Of a stretch of 18,086 nucleotides of DNA, positions 5,438 through 18,086 are shown piece by piece. The position numbers and the translations under genes were made by a program. Origin of the DNA: Candidatus Thorarchaeota archaeon (GTDB lineage: Archaea; Asgardarchaeota; Thorarchaeia; Thorarchaeales; Thorarchaeaceae); the NCBI GenBank assembly GCA_019057475.1, contig DXJO01000055.1, forward strand, positions 1 through 18,086. Direction: 5' to 3'. The notes under the pieces were generated by a model that made no database searches, had not been told where the DNA came from, and worked only from the letters and a program-made list of their open reading frames with translations. Position 1 is the first letter of the stretch; every line of letters begins with the position of its first letter.

Positions 5438-7324
5438 TTAGAGCTGGAGTTTGAATGTATATTCCTCATCTTGAATGGCCAGATTACTCTCTACAACTTT
5501 CCCAGTCTTGTGTATGAAGCGAACCATCTTCTGGTTTTGGGGGTGGACGTATGCAATGAATCTCTTGACACCCTTGCTCTTGGCAATTCGCATGAGGTGG
5601 TTCAGCAAGAATGTCCCTACTCCTCGACCTTGGTAATCGTCCTCTACAAGTAGAGCAAACTCAGCTGCGTTTTTGCTTCGGTCCAGCAGATATCTTCCTG
5701 CTCCAATTATTTTCTCAGCTTCTTTCTCGTCGTCGGTACTGATTACTGCTACAATCGAGATGTCGCGGTCTTGGTCTACATTGTAGAAGTCTTGGAGTGT
5801 CTGCCTTCTGAGGCTTCTCAATGGAGTAAGAAACCGGAAATAGATAGACTCCTCACTTAGATTATAGAACAGTCCTTTGATTCGGTCTGCGTCATCTGGA
5901 CGAATCAATCTGAATTGCACGTTGACATCCCCCTCAGGGCCCTTGAACGTTTCTTGGCACTCGTATTCCGTCGCAAAGTATGTGCCTTGGACCTGAAATG
6001 GCACTTGGTCCTCGAACACATAGTGCATCTTCTTCGCCGCTTCCAATAGCTCATTCCTGAACTTCGGATGTGCAACAGCAATCAGTGACAGAACACGTTC
6101 TCGTATCGTTTTTCCATGGAGCGTAGCAAGGCCGTACTCGGTGATGATATAATCGACATCACCCCGTGTTGTGACGACCCCCGCTCCCTCGCTGAGGCGC
6201 GGCACAATCCTTGAAACCTCCCCATCCATTGCGGTTGATAACATGCAGATGATGGCTTTGCCACCCGGGGATTTAGATGCGCCGCGGATGAAGTCAACTT
6301 GGCCGCCAATCCCGCTGTAGAATCTATGACCAATCGAGTCTGCACATACCTGTCCTGTTAGGTCAATCTCAAGCGCAGAGTTGATTGCTATCATTCTCTT
6401 GTTTTGACCAATGACGTGCGGGTCGTTGACATAGGCAGTGTCATGAAAATGGAACATTGGATTATCATCTATGAAGTCATAGAGCTTCTTTGTACCCATT
6501 GCGAAGCTGGCGATCACCTTGTCCCGGTGAATGGTCTTTTTCTTGTTATTGACAATGCCGCTCTCAATTAGCGGAATCAGACTGTCACTAAACATCTCTG
6601 TATGTATCCCTAGGTCTCTAACGCCTGTTTCCATTAGATTACTACAGACTGACTGTGGGAGGGCGCCTATCCCCAGCTCCAATGTGGACCCATTTTCAAT
6701 AAGCCTCGCCACAAACGAGCCGATGAGGTCTATTACTTCGTCCACTTCCTGCGCCTCAAGCTCTCGCAGGGGCTCGTTGTGGGGCACCAAGTAATCCAAA
6801 TCATTGACCTGTATGAAAGAGTCACCGTGTGTGACAGGCATTCTGTTGTTAACCTGAGCTATGACAAGATTCGCACTCTCTGCAGCTGATTTCGTGATAT
6901 CGACTGCGATACCGAGAGAGCAGTAGCCATGTTCGTCTGGGGGGCTCACTTGAATCATCGCAACATCAAGTGGCATTCTCTTGTGGCGGAAGAGTCTAGG
7001 AATATCAGATAGCATGATGGGCGTGTAATCTGCCCTCCCCTCAGCAACTGCATCGCGTATGTTGGCACTGACGAAGAAGGAGTTGTGTCTGAATTGAGCC
7101 TGGAACTTTGGATCCGCGGAAGGCGTATCTCCAAGGGTCAGGAGATGGACAATCTCATTGTCAGCCATCTGATCTGCACACTTAGCAAGTTCTTGCACAA
7201 GATAATAGGGGACGCCACAACCAGTTCCCAGGAAGATACGAGAGCCTCTTCCAATCTTCCCAATGGCGTCATTAGCTGTCAGGACTTTCTTCTTGTACTT
7301 CTCAGTCCACTTAGTCCTTGGCAT
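5438..7324 (-). CDS. Acetyl-CoA hydrolase/4-hydroxybutyrate CoA-transferase-family protein fused to a C-terminal Pat-type GNAT acetyltransferase
   Basis: N-terminal ~430 aa: 'GRADYTP', 'LGIHTEMFSD' (catalytic Glu), 'SGIGGQVDF.RGA', 'VDYIITEYG'. C-terminal ~170 aa: 'RLIRPDD', 'LSEESIYFRF', 'AEFALLVEDDYQGRGVG', 'N.KM'. Confidence 0.92.
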   Translation of the reverse strand: MPRTKWTEKYKKKVLTANDAIGKIGRGSRIFLGTGCGVPYYLVQELAKCADQMADNEIVHLLTLGDTPSADPKFQAQFRHNSFFVSANIRDAVAEGRADYTPIMLSDIPRLFRHKRMPLDVAMIQVSPPDEHGYCSLGIAVDITKSAAESANLVIAQVNNRMPVTHGDSFIQVNDLDYLVPHNEPLRELEAQEVDEVIDLIGSFVARLIENGSTLELGIGALPQSVCSNLMETGVRDLGIHTEMFSDSLIPLIESGIVNNKKKTIHRDKVIASFAMGTKKLYDFIDDNPMFHFHDTAYVNDPHVIGQNKRMIAINSALEIDLTGQVCADSIGHRFYSGIGGQVDFIRGASKSPGGKAIICMLSTAMDGEVSRIVPRLSEGAGVVTTRGDVDYIITEYGLATLHGKTIRERVLSLIAVAHPKFRNELLEAAKKMHYVFEDQVPFQVQGTYFATEYECQETFKGPEGDVNVQFRLIRPDDADRIKGLFYNLSEESIYFRFLTPLRSLRRQTLQDFYNVDQDRDISIVAVISTDDEKEAEKIIGAGRYLLDRSKNAAEFALLVEDDYQGRGVGTFLLNHLMRIAKSKGVKRFIAYVHPQNQKMVRFIHKTGKVVESNLAIQDEEYTFKLQL

Positions 7325-8907: not shown

Positions 8908-10905
8908 GTGACAAATTTGTCAGAAAAGAAGATTACAGTCACATCAACTGAAGCTCGGAAGTTCGATCCTCCAAAGGGCTTTGCCGACAAGGCATACATC
9001 AAGAGCTACGAAGATCGAACTAAGCTCTGGAAGAAATCCATTGACGACCCCGATGACTTCTGGCTTGATGTGACAAAAGAACTATGTTACTGGAAGAAAG
9101 AACCCACTAAGGGCTTCGTTTGGAAGAACCCTGAGAGGGCTGAATTCACATGGTTTGAAGACGGCGTTACTAACATGGCTTACAACTGTCTTGACAAGCA
9201 CATTGAGGCTGGGAAGGGCAAGCAATTGGCCCTTATCTGGCAGGGTGAGCCTGAGGACGACTCCAAGACCTATACCTACGAGGAGCTCCGTGACGAAGTC
9301 AATAAGGCCGCAAATGTTCTGAAGAAGCTAGGCGTGAAGAAGGGCGACAGAGTTGCTATCTATCTACCAATGATTCCCGAGCTGGCTATCGTAATGACTG
9401 CGTGCACACGCATTGGCGCCATTCACAGCATTGTGTTTGGGGGTTTCAGTTCAGATGCTCTCAAGGACCGGATCAATGACTGCGATGCCAATGTATTGAT
9501 CACGGCTGATGGTTATTACCGTGGTGGCAAGACCATCACTCAGAAGAAGCTTGCAGACGCCGCGGTTGAGAAAGCCCCAAGTGTAAAGAATGTGCTTGTT
9601 ATCAAGAGGACTGGCGCCGAAATCGAATGGACCGACGGTCGTGATGTCTGGTACCATGAGATGATGAAGGACGCCTCCCCAGAGTGTGAAACCGAGTGGC
9701 TCAATGCTGAGGACCCACTATACATTCTCTACACCAGCGGTTCCACCGGCAAGCCAAAGGGTGTCCAGCACACTCTAGGCGGATATCTGACCTATGTGAC
9801 CCACACCTTCAAAATGATATTTGACTGGCATGAGGGCGACATCTACTGGTGCACCGCGGACATCGGCTGGGTTACTGGCCACTCCTATATTGTCTACGGG
9901 CCACTCTCAGCCGGCGCTACTACGCTTATGTTTGAGGCAGTTCCGACCTATCCTGATGCCGGAAGATTCTGGCAGATAGTCGAAAAGTACAAGGTCACAC
10001 AGTTCTACACTGCTCCAACCGCCATCCGTGCGCTCATGAAGTTCGGCGATAGGTGGCCTAATGAGTACGACCTCTCAAGCTTGAAACTTCTGGGCACTGT
10101 CGGTGAACCAATCAATCCTGCAGCATGGATGTGGTACCGCGAGGTAATTGGTCATGAGAACTGTCCGATTGTTGACACCTACTGGCAAACAGAAACAGGT
10201 GGAGTGATTATTACTCCCTTGCCTGGTGCCACACCAACGAAGCCTGGTTCTGCTACACTACCATATTTCGGGGTCGATCCAATAGTTGTAGGTGAAGATG
10301 GTATGCCTGTCAACGCAAACGAAGGTGGATACATCTGCATGAAAACGCCCTGGCCGGGCCTGATGCGGACTCTCTATGGTGACCATGACAGGTTTGTCAG
10401 CACATACTTCTCTCAGTACAAGAATCCTGACACAGGACTTCCCATGTACATGACGGGCGATGGTGGTCGTTTTGACGAAGATGGCTACTACTGGATTATG
10501 GGCCGGATTGATGATGTCCTGAAGGTTTCAGGGCACCGTTTGGGGACGGCAGAGATTGAATCTGCCCTTGTTAAGCACCCAACAGTCGCAGAGTCTGCAG
10601 TCGTCGGTTTTCCACATGAAATCAAGGGAGAATCAATCTACGTGTTTGTGACCTTGAAGCTTGGCGTGGAGAAGACAGAGGACCTCAGGCAGGAACTACG
10701 CCTGCATGTGCGAAGAGAGATTGGTCCAATTGCAACTCCTGAGAAAATCCAATTCGCTGATGCACTTCCGAAGACGCGGTCCGGCAAGATCATGCGTAGA
10801 ATTCTGAAGCGCATAGCTGCTGACAAGATTGACGAGATTGGTGACACTAGCACTCTGGCAGATCCAACAGTCGTCGAAACCTTGGTTGAAGAGCGGATCA
10901 AATAG
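8908..10905 (+). CDS. acs: AMP-forming acetyl-CoA synthetase
   Basis: '[11 protein letters not shown]', '[14 protein letters not shown]', 'VGEPINP', 'DTYWQTETG', 'GRIDDV', A10 motif '[12 protein letters not shown]'. Start is GTG 8908 or TTG 8917. Confidence 0.97.
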
Positions 10906-12102: not shown

Positions 12103-12474
12103 TTGGAAAAGAGTCGAAAGAACGTACTTGAAGAGATTGAGCGCTGGTCCAAGGAGATCAAGCGCGGGGCCGCCTCGCTGGCAATCGTTGCAATCCTGGA
12201 TGAACAGACTGCATATGGTTATGAAATCGTGAAAACACTGGGTGAGAGAGCATCATTCCTGCAGCTCGAACAGGGAACGGTCTATCCACTCCTGCGGCGC
12301 CTGGAGAAAAGGAAGCTGCTGGAAAGTGAATGGAATTATGATGATCCTACGAAGCCCAAGAAATACTACAAGCTCACTGCAGACGGCAAGATGGCGTTGC
12401 AGATGATGACAGAGACATGGTCTGTGTTATCGGATGAGTTGAAGAGATTAATCGAAGGAGATGATTCACAATGA
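12103..12474 (+). CDS. PadR-family transcriptional regulator
   Basis: 'YGYEIVK', 'GTVYPLLRRLE', 'KKYYKLT..G', C-terminal W-containing helix; GAGGTGG SD at 12089-12095; TTG start. Confidence 0.93.
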   Translation: MEKSRKNVLEEIERWSKEIKRGAASLAIVAILDEQTAYGYEIVKTLGERASFLQLEQGTVYPLLRRLEKRKLLESEWNYDDPTKPKKYYKLTADGKMALQMMTETWSVLSDELKRLIEGDDSQ

Positions 12475-13598
12475 GTGGAAGTCCAATGAACATGATTGAG
12501 AAGTATCTGGAACGAGTCAGAGTGTACCTTCCTATTGATAGCGAAGATGCGCTGACTGAGATAAGAACACATCTGATAGAGGAAGCCGAAACACTCGGTC
12601 AGGGCGAGATTACACATGGCTCTGTCATGCTCGCTATAGAGAGATTTGGCAATCCAAAGGAAGCAGCCAATGCATATGCCGGCATTGGGAAACGAGTGGG
12701 TCCTCTTCCTGCTGAGTATGTTCAACCGGCAATTCGAATAGTTCTCCTGCTTGTAGCGCTAGGTGCTGCATTCATCATGGGTAGCTATGTTGTGGGCATT
12801 TCAATTTTCGACGTCGTTGGGATAACCAACTTTCCATTCAACATACCCGTAATGGTTGCACTATCACTTCTCTATGCAGCGATCATCATCGCCGGCCTGT
12901 CAGCTATTGAAAAGAGAAACGCGCCTCCTAGCGAGAAGACTGTGCTTGAGAGTTTCCTTGGCCTTGGCAGCGATGTATTCAAACCCAAAGGTCGTTGGGA
13001 TGCAGCAGCCGAAGTTGTTCTTGGTGTGGTTTTTGCAATGGTCCTTCTCCTGTCACCAATACGGATTCTCTTCAGAGAAGATTTCCTGCTATTCATGAAC
13101 GTGATTGCAGTCTTGCTACTCATGGATGCATCGAAGGGCCTTCTCTTCTTCATCGCTGGGGAGAACAACTTGAATCTACTATTTGAGGCGGTTCTGGGAG
13201 GAATCTGGGTGGTCCTGTGCATGTTCCTTATCAATATACAGTGGCCACTTGAGCAGGTCTATGCTTTCGATGGAGCGGAATGGGTATTGATTCGACTCGC
13301 GGACTTTCCATTTGAGATTGTAGAACTTTTCGGCAGATTTGAAGTCTTGGCATTGCTCTGGGCAATCGGTGTCTTCATAGTCGTTGTTACTAACATGTGG
13401 AGCATCCTGGTTTCATCGATGAAGATCGCGATGTATCTCAAGGAGGATAAGGGACTCTGGTGGCAGGGCCGCTGGGGGCGCGGACGTCATCGCTTCCCAT
13501 TCCTTCATCGCGATTCGGATCAGAATCAAGCGCATTCTGATGATGGGACTACTTACAGTGATGGGCACAAAGAATCTGACAATATTGACGAAACGTGA
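12471..13598 (+). CDS. PadR-associated multi-TM membrane protein with N-terminal HAAS-like helical domain
   Basis: 'IEKYLERVRVYLP...EIRTHLIE...AIERFGNPKEAA' followed by about 6 TM segments; ATGA overlap with the padR stop. Confidence 0.8.
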   Translation: MSGSPMNMIEKYLERVRVYLPIDSEDALTEIRTHLIEEAETLGQGEITHGSVMLAIERFGNPKEAANAYAGIGKRVGPLPAEYVQPAIRIVLLLVALGAAFIMGSYVVGISIFDVVGITNFPFNIPVMVALSLLYAAIIIAGLSAIEKRNAPPSEKTVLESFLGLGSDVFKPKGRWDAAAEVVLGVVFAMVLLLSPIRILFREDFLLFMNVIAVLLLMDASKGLLFFIAGENNLNLLFEAVLGGIWVVLCMFLINIQWPLEQVYAFDGAEWVLIRLADFPFEIVELFGRFEVLALLWAIGVFIVVVTNMWSILVSSMKIAMYLKEDKGLWWQGRWGRGRHRFPFLHRDSDQNQAHSDDGTTYSDGHKESDNIDET

Positions 13599-15213: not shown

Positions 15214-16398
15214 CTACTCTAGTCCAAAGGTGGGAAATATGAGCTTCTTAATCTTCTCAATGGTTTCATCTAACTCTCTCTTGACCTTGGGATAATGCTC
15301 ATCATTCATCCGCCTTGGTCTATCAGTCCATCCGCCACGCTTTACCTCGAATCCATAGCTCTGACACAGCTCTATCCACTCAGCTGGGAGGACTGGCGGC
15401 AGAGCGACTCCGGCCAAGTTTGCGAGTACAATGGTCCATATTTTGGCCGTAGCCACGGGATTATAGCCCCCTCCTCCTACTACTACAAGCTTCTTGTTGC
15501 CCAGATGCACCAGCTGCTGTACAGTCGATGAGAGACGATGATATGTATCATAAGTCAGCATCAAATCGGCAAGTGGGTCCCCCATGTGAGCATCTCCGCC
15601 AACGTCCCAGAACACGAAATTAGGCTTGTAAGCCAGCCATATAGGTACGACAACGCTCTCGAATGCCCTCCAGAATTCAACATCATCTGTGAGTGGTGGC
15701 AACGGTATGTTCACGGAATAGCCCTTGCCCGCACCAACTCCCACTTCTTCAGGTCTTCCGGTCATAGGAAAGAAACTCATGCTGAGTTCGTGCATTGAAA
15801 TTGTTAAGACATTAGGGTCATCGTAGAATGCTTGCTGTGTGCCATCGCTGTGATGGACATCTGTATCGAGGTACAGGACCTTCTTGTCGGGATAATTCTC
15901 CTTGTATTTCTTGATAGCAATCACGCAATCATTGAGATAGCAGAATCCTGCAGCCTTACTCTCCATCGCATGATGAAAGCCACCCACGAATGACATGGCA
16001 TTTCGAAATCGGCCTTCGGCCACTCCCATCACTGCATCTATAGCTGCTCCAACAGGGAGGCTGGCATACTTATCGACATCTTGGAATACGGGGCACTCAT
16101 CCGTGTCGAGTCCAAATCGTGAAGAGAACGCTGAGCCCGTGTTTCCAAATAGCTCAAGGGTTTCAATGTACGATGAATCATGGAAAAGAGAGAGTTCCTC
16201 CCGTGTCGCCTGCCGCATTGGCTGCAGAGAAATTTTGTCAGACTTGGTGAGTCCGGACATGACAGGCAGACTCCAGGTGATGTCAAGTCTAGCACGATTC
16301 CAGAATGGATTGGGCTCTGTCTTCATTCTGTCTAGATCGTCGAGACCATCCATTACCAACAATTCTTTTGGTCCATAGAGAGCAGTCTTTTCCGACAA
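15214..16398 (-). CDS. Zn-dependent histone-deacetylase-family (class I/AcuC-like) protein deacetylase
   Basis: 'GGFHHA', 'GFCYLND', 'DTDVHHSDG', 'FFP.TG', 'N.PL', 'GGDAH.GDPL', 'GGGGY'. GGAGG SD favours TTG 16398 over ATG 16416. Confidence 0.92.
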   Translation of the reverse strand: MSEKTALYGPKELLVMDGLDDLDRMKTEPNPFWNRARLDITWSLPVMSGLTKSDKISLQPMRQATREELSLFHDSSYIETLELFGNTGSAFSSRFGLDTDECPVFQDVDKYASLPVGAAIDAVMGVAEGRFRNAMSFVGGFHHAMESKAAGFCYLNDCVIAIKKYKENYPDKKVLYLDTDVHHSDGTQQAFYDDPNVLTISMHELSMSFFPMTGRPEEVGVGAGKGYSVNIPLPPLTDDVEFWRAFESVVVPIWLAYKPNFVFWDVGGDAHMGDPLADLMLTYDTYHRLSSTVQQLVHLGNKKLVVVGGGGYNPVATAKIWTIVLANLAGVALPPVLPAEWIELCQSYGFEVKRGGWTDRPRRMNDEHYPKVKRELDETIEKIKKLIFPTFGLE

Positions 16399-16637
16399 TG
16401 CATTTCCTCCATACATCTTCCCGACTTACTGAATGCGCGTTCTTGACGCCTCCACGTCGCTATATAGTCCTACGCCTAGGACTGATGCAACTCTCCTAAT
16501 GACCTCTCCTAATATCCATAATGAAATTGGTTAAGAATTGGAAAAATACGCCATAATTTGCCTTTTTCCTGATTTCATATTCCATTTGAGCCTGTGCGAA
16601 AGCCTCATTATTCCTCGGTACTTACCGTAATCTTGTC

Positions 16638-17666
16638 ATGTCGAAGTTTGAGCTGCTCAAACAGACGCTATTGGGGAATCTGGGAGCTCAGATACCTTTC
16701 TCCGTGTGGAAACATCATCCTGAGAAAGATCGTACTCCAGAGGGACTTGCGGAAGAAGAGATTGCGTTTCATCGTGAATTCGATCATGACCTACTCAAGA
16801 TAAGCTTCCATGGCCGCTATGCAGTGGTCGATTGGGGGTGTCTTGCAGTGTATGATGGGGCCATCTCTGGTTCTACCACATGTGCAAGCTGTGCTGTTGA
16901 GAGGCTAAGCGATTGGGAAACCCTGGAGCCCCTAGATGTCAATGCGGGAGAACTTGGCAATCAAGTTCGGGCTGTAGAATTGGTCAGCAAGTACACTGAA
17001 GGTTTGGTTCCAACAATGGCTACAGTATTTGATACAGCCCTAGTGGCAGACAAACTATGCATGGGCAAGTTCACCGACTACATAGTTGATGGTCCTGAGA
17101 TTATGCGAAGCACCCTCGACATGATAACCGATGTCATGATTGACTTTGGTCGAGCTGTTCTTGATGCAGGCTCTGATGGCATCTTCATTGCATCACAACA
17201 TTCTACTCACTCAGCCATATCAGAGAGGCAGTATCTGGAGTTCGTGTTCCCCTATGACCTGAAAATAGTAGAAAAGCTCCGTGGAAAGGCCGATTTCATT
17301 GCGTTGCACCTCCACGCCAGGGAAAAGGATGAAGAGATTCGCTTCGAAAAGATTGCGAGGACACCCGGTGTAGATGCAATAAATTGGGAGGATCAAACCG
17401 CTGCTCTCTCGCTGAGAGAAGGCAAGATAATCTCTCAGAAAGCAGTTCTCGGAGGCATAGACCATATGGGTACGCTACGGACCGGTACTCCCGACGAGGT
17501 CAAGGCGCAGATCTTTGATGCTGCCCGTGAAGCAGGCTTGGTTAGACTCATGATTGCCCCTGGGTGTGTCATAACCGTTGATACTCCAAGAGAAAACATT
17601 CAAGCTATGGCTGATGCAGTACGATCAATCGATCCGTTCTCTAACGAATGGGAAGCACACTCTTGA
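16638..17666 (+). CDS. Uroporphyrinogen decarboxylase (URO-D/MtaA-CmuA) superfamily protein
   Basis: 'AGSDGIFIA', 'YLEFVFPYD', 'LHLH', 'VLGGID', 'GTPDEV', 'IAPGC', 'TPRENIQA'; lacks the HemE 'RQAGR' motif. Confidence 0.85.
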   Translation: MSKFELLKQTLLGNLGAQIPFSVWKHHPEKDRTPEGLAEEEIAFHREFDHDLLKISFHGRYAVVDWGCLAVYDGAISGSTTCASCAVERLSDWETLEPLDVNAGELGNQVRAVELVSKYTEGLVPTMATVFDTALVADKLCMGKFTDYIVDGPEIMRSTLDMITDVMIDFGRAVLDAGSDGIFIASQHSTHSAISERQYLEFVFPYDLKIVEKLRGKADFIALHLHAREKDEEIRFEKIARTPGVDAINWEDQTAALSLREGKIISQKAVLGGIDHMGTLRTGTPDEVKAQIFDAAREAGLVRLMIAPGCVITVDTPRENIQAMADAVRSIDPFSNEWEAHS

Positions 17667-17729
17667 TCAAGAATACTGAGGGTTGGATAGAAATCCTGCA
17701 ATAACCAGAGCGCAAATCGCATATTCACT

Positions 17730-17784
17730 AGTCACAAGATGTGACTCTATTCTGTGACCCTCAGATGTGGCTCCGCATTATATA
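17730..17784 (+). promoter_or_regulatory. Inverted repeat, 13-bp-phased TGTGRC repeats and TATA box upstream of the small-ORF array
   Basis: AGTCACA-AGA-TGTGACT at 17730-17746; TGTGAC/TGTGAC/TGTGGC at 17740, 17753 and 17766; TTATATA at 17778-17784. Confidence 0.55.
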
Positions 17785-17813
17785 CTGATTTTGAGTGTTA
17801 TTCCTTGTGAAAT

Positions 17814-17927
17814 ATGATGGCTCTGGCAACAAACAACCGGAACTCGTCTGTGCTGAAGAACAAGACCGTGGTCAAGACTCAGTCAACTGATGCTCTTAGC
17901 TACGCCTACATGACTGTTGTGAGGTGA
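17814..17927 (+). CDS. Small peptide 1 (MMALATNNRNSSVLKNKTVVKTQSTDALSYAYMTVVR, 37 aa)
   Basis: Manually translated. ATG lies about 30 nt after the TATA box (leaderless-type geometry); similar to the next small ORF. Confidence 0.6.
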   Translation: MMALATNNRNSSVLKNKTVVKTQSTDALSYAYMTVVR

Positions 17928-17934
17928 AAAGGAT

Positions 17935-18030
17935 ATGGCTCTTGCGAAGGACTACCGCTCACTACAGAAGAACACCCAGAAGACTCTGGTGTCGACCAAG
18001 GCAATCGCTCTTGTCTACTTCAGGAGATAG
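17935..18030 (+). CDS. Small peptide 2 (MALAKDYRSLQKNTQKTLVSTKAIALVYFRR, 31 aa)
   Basis: Strong archaeal SD GAGGTGA at 17921-17927, 7 nt before the ATG; similar to peptide 1. Confidence 0.68.
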   Translation: MALAKDYRSLQKNTQKTLVSTKAIALVYFRR

Positions 18031-18036
18031 ACCTAG

Positions 18037-18086
18037 ATGGCTGGAAACAACGGCAAGACCGTTGGAACTCTCTCTAGTGCTCCTGA
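18037..18086 (+). CDS. ORF start (MAGNNGKTVGTLSSAP...), truncated by the window end; third peptide or a larger gene
   Basis: SD AGGAGA at 18022-18027; ATGGCT start as in peptides 1 and 2; shares NN and KTV elements. Confidence 0.55.
   Translation, partial: MAGNNGKTVGTLSSAP

Follow-up and report, generated by a model that had tools for sequence, protein, structure and literature searches.

A candidate regulon of small basic microproteins and bactofilin in Thorarchaeia and related Asgard lineages

Organization of the locus

The window analysed here is a stretch of 18,086 nt which represents the entire contig C37 of a 3.3-Mb Thorarchaeia MAG (genome G000), and its neighbouring genes have relatives labelled Thorarchaeota. 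At its end, three consecutive small ORFs (P1, P2 and P3) are found, each starting with ATGGCT and separated by gaps of 7 and 6 nt. An earlier note on this DNA had described these ORFs together with a TATA box upstream of P1 and with SD-like sequences, GAGGTGA for P2 and AGGAGA for P3, formed by the final codons of the respective preceding ORF, and coordinates, gaps, SD-like elements and TATA box were all confirmed (Table 1). Its description as an array of related ORFs holds for the paralogous P1 and P2 but not for P3, which is not their paralogue and whose ATGGCT start is not kept within the genus.

Table 1 Features of the microprotein cassette and its promoter in the window
Feature	Position	Strand	Basis
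Palindromic operator, type I box: 7-3-7 inverted repeat, core GTCAC-N5-GTGAC	17730..17746		Pattern counts
Half-sites at 17741, 17754 and 17767, spaced exactly 13 bp apart	17741..17771	+	Sequence, promoter comparison
CCGC element at BRE position and TATA box (TATA 17778-17784)	17772..17784	+	Promoter comparison
P1, basic microprotein of 36-37 aa	17814/17817-17927	+	Likely start 17817; 37-aa gene call in 9 public contigs
SD for P2 (GAGGTGA, SD-like) in last codons and stop of P1	17921..17927	+	Sequence
P2, 31-aa paralogue of P1	17935..18030	+	Sequence, family profile, dN/dS
P3, 5' part; 40 aa in full on C50/C48, family unrelated to P1/P2	18037..18086	+	127-nt contig overlap, synteny

Several lines of evidence argue that P1 and P2 are not chance ORFs. 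Pairs of adjacent, MAL-started ORFs of 25-40 codons occur twice in the genome and never in five shuffles; a P1/P2 profile gives matches in 85 of 85 family genomes, with up to 14 per genome and 11 (at E ≤ 0.1) in the genome of the window; the frames of the listed matches, mostly 34-38 codons long, are free of stops; and dN/dS among congeners is below 1 (0.50 for P1, 0.34 for P2 and 0.55 for P3, as estimated from few and mutually related sequences). Hence, the small genes are supported as real, coupled and conserved, including the codon-level conservation which the earlier note had proposed to look for, and the P1/P2 family adds 5-14 missed genes to each Thorarchaeia genome. Contigs from RNA libraries of one study, derived from relatives, covered the equivalent of 17584-18086 and little else in 12 kb; as the runs had been picked by that very stretch, extend over the promoter as well and may hold DNA, this was not taken as a sign of expression.

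The final 127 nt of the window overlap the starts of contigs C48 and C50, while the end of contig C51 is a near-identical copy of the window promoter and P1, so the assembly evidently broke at a two-copy repeat. According to synteny in congeners (L002, L003, L085), the gene order at the window copy is URO-D, P1-P2-P3, tRNA-Leu and TBP, and that at the twin copy is a 768-aa gene, P1-P2-P3 and a PAS kinase. Beyond the window, P3 is completed (40 aa) and is followed by a hairpin with U-tract and then by the convergent tRNA and TBP genes. Contig overlap and synteny thus identify the genes just beyond the window, the first of which lies on the opposite strand, as housekeeping or signalling genes, tRNA-Leu and TBP or the PAS kinase of the twin copy, in place of the modification enzymes which had been expected there.

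Further observations concern other genes of the contig and genome. The tRNA-Leu(CAA) gene (L020:334-452; G000 C50) contains an intron, was missed by default ARAGORN and found with introns allowed, and displays an apparent extra T-arm insert absent from L002. Three TBP homologues are encoded (G000 C50:602-1192; C40:21398-23001), two of which are arranged divergently and share about 33% identity with the first; no peptide-type boxes were found between this pair (C40:21398-23001). Within the window, a PadR regulator overlapping a HAAS-domain membrane protein (12103-13598, +) represents a known membrane-signalling pair. An acetyl-CoA hydrolase/transferase-like gene (5438-7324, -) seems, by eye, to carry a GNAT domain at its C-terminus and lies near genes for an acetyl-CoA synthetase (8908-10905, +) and a histone-deacetylase-family protein (15214-16416, -).

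The P1/P2 family and the question of modification

Outside the family, the P1/P2 profile gave a single weak match in 311 Asgard genomes, and a search of 1.8 billion representatives returned 43 matches, nearly all being family members of 29-46 aa. The peptide families had no match in Pfam, NCBIfam, PDB, Atlas or Rfam. Several candidate relationships were rejected: the long library matches P0008 and P0032 are low-complexity repeats, the similarity of the P1 N-terminus to the eukaryotic eS1 tail has an E-value of 1.2, HbYX, PIP, WH2 and VIM motifs (compared by eye) are inconsistent across the family, and mimicry of a host protein segment found no match in long ORFs.

Family members are basic, 28-37 aa long, and share the core S-T-x-A-(I/L/V)-x-Y-A-Y and a final Arg. 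The 113 collected peptides have a median length of 33 and a median charge of +5, and 106 end in Arg, encoded by AGG or AGA in 102 of these 106 compared to 46% genome-wide. This residue is partly imposed, since the SD of the next ORF overlaps the last codons, yet some last-in-operon copies keep it while using CGN codons. Conservation is concentrated in the last 12-14 residues; at the putative ancestral (regulator) locus, too, the N-terminus is variable and the C-terminus is the conserved part. Neither TM nor signal stretches were found in the peptides, Cys and double-Gly are almost absent, and the maximum 15-residue hydropathy is 1.47 (median 0.33). With a helical moment of 0.20 versus 0.21 after shuffling, the peptides are not amphipathic, while aromatic residues are spaced i/i+2 in 71% versus 25% of shuffled sequences. 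The AF2 model of P1 consists of one low-confidence helix (pTM 0.26).

These properties bear on two alternative explanations. The median net charge, the many copies under strong multi-site promoters and the co-regulated efflux and acetyltransferase genes could indicate abundant basic nucleic-acid-binding or storage proteins of a resting state (SASP-like), or cationic antimicrobials from a multi-peptide operon (aureocin A70-like) with MFS/GNAT self-protection. This is quite unlikely, as the peptides are hydrophilic and non-amphipathic, occur class-wide with a conserved motif and not patchily, and match no such family in sequence. The earlier note had favoured a RiPP cassette instead, which is not supported: no maturase was found near the annotated loci, and none proved co-distributed or co-regulated. 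Radical SAM, RRE, YcaO, peptidase or ABC exporter genes were not found within 10 kb of these loci, the neighbouring genes vary from locus to locus, and the genome of the window has no YcaO and no LanC above cut-off. Maturation by a distant RRE-rSAM-SPASM enzyme, or by the methyltransferase encoded convergently to the putative ancestral locus, would fit the Tyr-rich peptide cores, the single RRE-rSAM-SPASM gene per genome in 62/85 genomes and the recurrence of a class I methyltransferase as convergent neighbour. In the genome of the window, however, the single RRE-rSAM-SPASM gene lies 54 kb from the nearest peptide copy, has no promoter boxes and is outside the regulon, and the enzyme was not found in 5 of 6 congeners and 6 of 7 genomes of another genus, all of them peptide-bearing. 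Moreover, a variable N-terminus followed by a conserved C-terminus is the reverse of a leader/core layout, and Cys and double-Gly sites are almost absent and hydrophobic stretches missing, which altogether makes the peptides highly improbable RiPP precursors. The orphan enzyme itself (L189:5323-6741; G000 C39) is 73-81% identical across 62/85 Thorarchaeia, with no precursor seen alongside.

P3 and the 3' hairpin

P3 belongs to a separate family of 30-46 aa, variable apart from an acidic C-terminal tail of nine residues which, at the window locus, falls beyond the window end. It was detected in 62/76 family genomes versus 0/224 other Asgard genomes. The codons of the tail fold as a hairpin (median z -3.2) which precedes a U-tract and contains the P3 stop. 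In the covariation analysis, 80.5% of cells were paired and 18 two-sided changes were counted, in a test that is inflated by the relatedness of the sequences; a Leu/Trp swap in the tail, for example, corresponds to a U-A to G-C exchange in the hairpin. As the peptide is kept where the hairpin is rebuilt, selection seems to act on both peptide and RNA, and P3 may serve chiefly as translated lead-in to the terminal hairpin. Of 51 loci, 30 have a convergent gene next to P3, and in the rest this gene varies. Since it is mostly convergent, the hairpin can be regarded as the point where a small, independent mRNA ends.

A stop codon inside a conserved hairpin, lengths close to the exit-tunnel span and conservation of the last 12-14 residues are also features that ribosome-directed peptides would display, either as termination arrest peptides (TnaC- or SpeFL-like) or as short ribosome-holding mRNAs, linking the state of translation with either the 3' hairpin or downstream MFS/GNAT genes. 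Some peptide operons are indeed coupled to DHA3-type MFS genes, and the Hermodarchaeia counterpart described below ends in two overlapping stems before a U-tract. Against this, the motif-to-stop register is not fixed but varies by three residues, with tails of 3, 4, 5 and 6 residues in 51, 48, 41 and 3 peptides, respectively. Furthermore, there is usually no downstream gene to control: none shares the transcript at the window locus or at most P3 loci, while one is present at some MFS loci, and the ORFs directly before MFS_1 genes have lost the core motif. Such a ribosome-directed role is therefore improbable. Conversely, lone copies remain intact, and together with the variable or convergent gene after P3 and the motif loss before MFS_1 genes this argues for action in trans.

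Promoter classes and the divergent regulator

Three promoter classes were distinguished in Thorarchaeia. Type I is the class of the window cassette; its strict pattern was matched in 62 of 86 family genomes, against 0 for the reversed control, and nearly all of the 54-bp promoters that were read place the ATG 32 nt past the TATA. With three repeats it precedes peptides; the two-repeat form stands before a gene for a membrane protein of 369 aa and before bactofilin (PF04519), as is also seen in the genome of the window, where bactofilin lies at C42:337783-339030. This membrane protein (L053:2037-3143; G000 C29) is built from repeats, occurs Thorarchaeia-wide and has no family match. Type II (53/86 genomes) comprises three TGGTCA sites, a weak TATA position and GTGACC, with the ATG about 25 nt later, and heads other peptide copies, MFS genes and an 1104-aa GNAT protein. 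Its interpretation as structured RNA was discarded for lack of a consistent fold, and the element was treated as DNA sites. The 1104-aa protein (L127:3651-6962; G000 C40) carries a single N-terminal GNAT domain and has the type II promoter in several genomes; at L097, L098 and L106 the same promoter class precedes a coupled pair (~110 aa and ~85 aa) next to universal-stress-like genes. Type III, GGTTTG-N5-CAAACC abutting the TATA, was found in 20/86 genomes under the strict pattern and heads peptides and MFS genes. The MFS genes after peptide cassettes belong to three different subfamilies. Boxes before MFS, GNAT and membrane genes would fit a broader stress regulon. In some genera, the genes around a peptide operon are one of TFIIB-type Zn-ribbon kind, one for SMC and two unknown ones (L091:8532-15366).

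The type III site separates a peptide operon from a divergent gene for a winged-helix regulator of about 250 aa, which is of PH1932/ArsR type and present in 56/59 family genomes; in the genome of the window it lies at C21:20781-21542. The operon lies opposite this regulator in 25/25 orthologue loci from 11 genera (the window copy not being among them), compared to 0/3 loci of regulator paralogues and 0/2 Hermodarchaeia loci. We infer that the ancestral peptide locus of Thorarchaeia is the one beside the regulator, and that the window copy arose by duplication and is controlled by type I. A class I methyltransferase with N-terminal Cys-rich knuckle (L179:3242-4048 and orthologues) recurs as convergent neighbour of the regulator and its peptide operon. 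The regulator model (pLDDT 87.6) matches Pyrococcus PH1932 over the whole length (Foldseek E 6e-10; Z 14.6, rmsd 4.6, 183 aligned).

Such a constant pairing, with the operator abutting the TATA, could point to feedback in which P1/P2 (or P3) are ligands of the divergent regulator, either intracellularly or after MFS export in an Rgg/SHP-like manner. The PH1932 fold of the regulator and the three MFS subfamilies behind peptide cassettes, though MFS genes make up ~1% of the genome's genes, agree with this possibility. Nevertheless, feedback is unlikely, because no TPR domain was found in the regulator model, the peptides have neither hydrophobic leader nor cleavage site, Hermodarchaeia and f23 peptides occur without an adjoining regulator of this type, and the adjacency is fully accounted for if the regulator simply controls the operon. 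A complex prediction of the regulator dimer with P3 and P1 scored 0.10 and speaks neither for nor against binding.

Bactofilin in three Asgard lineages

The type I box is present in 65/76 genomes of family f1, 6/19 of f12 (Hermodarchaeia by record names), 4/11 of f23 and 0/68 of f9. This range fits that of an HTH_45 profile, found in 41/43, 17/19, 3/3 and 0/40 genomes, respectively. The 101-aa HTH_45 protein is encoded directly upstream of the bactofilin promoter in Thorarchaeia, at C42:339139-339441 in the genome of the window, and close to it in Hermodarchaeia. Its adjacency to bactofilin and its co-occurrence with the box in related lineages make it the leading candidate for an activator of the GTCAC box.

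In Hermodarchaeia, the three-repeat box heads a single basic ORF of 28-30 aa ending in an aromatic run and Cys-Arg (15/19 genomes), located 88-90 nt downstream of the box at all 19 loci listed, and the two-repeat box heads bactofilin in 5/5 cases. Behind the micro-ORF lies a conserved stem, its arms GUGCYC/GRGCAC being similar to the hairpin of Thorarchaeia. At 15 loci (among L240-L259), two conserved overlapping stems lie before a U-tract, 20-80 nt past the stop and with little covariation, and are candidates for a pseudoknot or a terminator/antiterminator pair. The Hermodarchaeia promoters (L240-L259, L235-L239) carry CCGCC directly before the TATA, reminiscent of the upstream BRE of eukaryotes and not of the purine-rich form of archaea. 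In f23, either bactofilin or tandem Lys-rich ORFs of 27-33 aa lie downstream of the box.

No profile similarity was detectable between Thorarchaeia and Hermodarchaeia peptides, so the peptides of the three lineages may be analogues. What is constant is the pairing of bactofilin with basic proteins of about 30 aa that end in a short hydrophobic or aromatic run. Motif evidence thus points to co-regulation of peptides and bactofilin through a common box in three lineages, and judged by these promoters the regulon is older than Thorarchaeia.

Proposed function and significance

The cassette is under coding selection, occurs class-wide in multiple copies, is translationally coupled, and has its own promoter and 3' hairpin but, at the window locus and most P3 loci, no regulated downstream gene. 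The explanation we tentatively prefer, at somewhat less than an even chance, is that the peptides are small, unmodified, trans-acting microproteins of an Asgard morphogenesis or stress regulon, likely targeting bactofilin or envelope machinery. The cassette would form a self-contained mRNA of ~350 nt, giving small, unmodified, cytoplasmic proteins that act in trans, and the HTH_45 protein encoded beside bactofilin would activate its GTCAC box. P1 and P2 would be basic chains, mostly disordered, that dock on a protein through their short aromatic C-terminal motif; the target would most likely be the co-induced bactofilin or envelope machinery, with P1/P2 as polymer regulator or adaptor in a programme of shape change or stress/dormancy. 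Thorarchaeia would have placed additional copies under the control of two more promoter classes and of the ArsR-type regulator. Because peptides and bactofilin have a common dedicated control site, the peptides may help to control cell shape.

Action on bactofilin is ranked first, owing to the constant bactofilin-peptide pairing, the binding of short basic client peptides by bactofilins (LmdC 1-38, KD ~15 µM; PMC10945521) and the role of archaeal bactofilins (halofilins) in shape transitions (PMC11459167). It is followed by feedback or signalling, nucleic-acid binding or antimicrobial action, ribosome-directed action and RiPP formation. That the peptide tails are not amphipathic helices, unlike SpoVM, counts against the bactofilin reading. 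So do the missing profile similarity between Thorarchaeia and Hermodarchaeia peptides and the boxes before MFS, GNAT and membrane genes, and co-regulation need not imply contact. In its most far-reaching form, which is fairly unlikely, a conserved HTH_45 activator would switch on bactofilin together with lineage-specific microproteins of ~30 aa capping, bundling or anchoring filaments in at least three Asgard lineages, to which Thorarchaeia would add a peptide-responsive ArsR circuit. If true, the closest relatives of eukaryotes would thereby gain their first defined developmental regulon and their first microprotein regulators of a cytoskeleton.

Gene regulation and changes of cell state are almost unexplored in Asgard archaea. 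In the present case, a putative regulon emerges from a rigid promoter grammar, two candidate regulators and unannotated microproteins; a cytoskeletal polymer is among its members, and it extends across deep lineages. As all parts are small and can be made, regulator-DNA and peptide-bactofilin binding are testable in vitro without culture.

Comparison with known systems

Trans-acting regulatory microproteins are known as a kind, while the present components and a cross-lineage regulon of them have not been described; a literature search, with subscription papers outside its scope, returned no description of the peptide family or the promoter boxes. Examples from Bacillus sporulation are MciZ, acting on FtsZ, and SpoVM, acting with SpoIVA, which are basic microproteins of 26-40 aa co-induced with the polymer-forming protein they act on. 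The likeness lies in small basic proteins being co-induced with a polymer-former, here the candidate partner bactofilin; in contrast to MciZ and SpoVM, with which no sequence match exists, the Asgard tails are non-amphipathic and the genes form multi-copy operons. With aureocin A70-type bacteriocins the Asgard peptides share the cationic character but not amphipathicity. PH1932 (PDB 1ULY, 2CWE) has the same whole-length fold as the regulator opposite the ancestral operon, although identity is 20-22% and a beta-hairpin insert sets the two apart.

The Rgg/SHP (RRNPP) systems of streptococci (PMC13361665) likewise pair a short peptide gene with a divergently oriented regulator gene and show a conserved peptide C-terminus and co-regulated transport genes. 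Their regulator, however, is a TPR protein and that of Thorarchaeia has the ArsR/PH1932 fold, and the Thorarchaeia peptides are hydrophilic, arranged in arrays of 2-4 and mostly encoded distant from the regulator. TnaC, SpeFL and PepNL (PMC11890864) are also short ORFs with conserved C-termini and RNA structure nearby, whereas the register of P1/P2 to the stop is variable and a downstream gene is usually missing. Finally, although known bactofilin clients are tails of membrane enzymes, the Asgard peptides are free microproteins and no common motif was seen, clients such as LmdC 1-38 (PMC10945521) are likewise short and basic.
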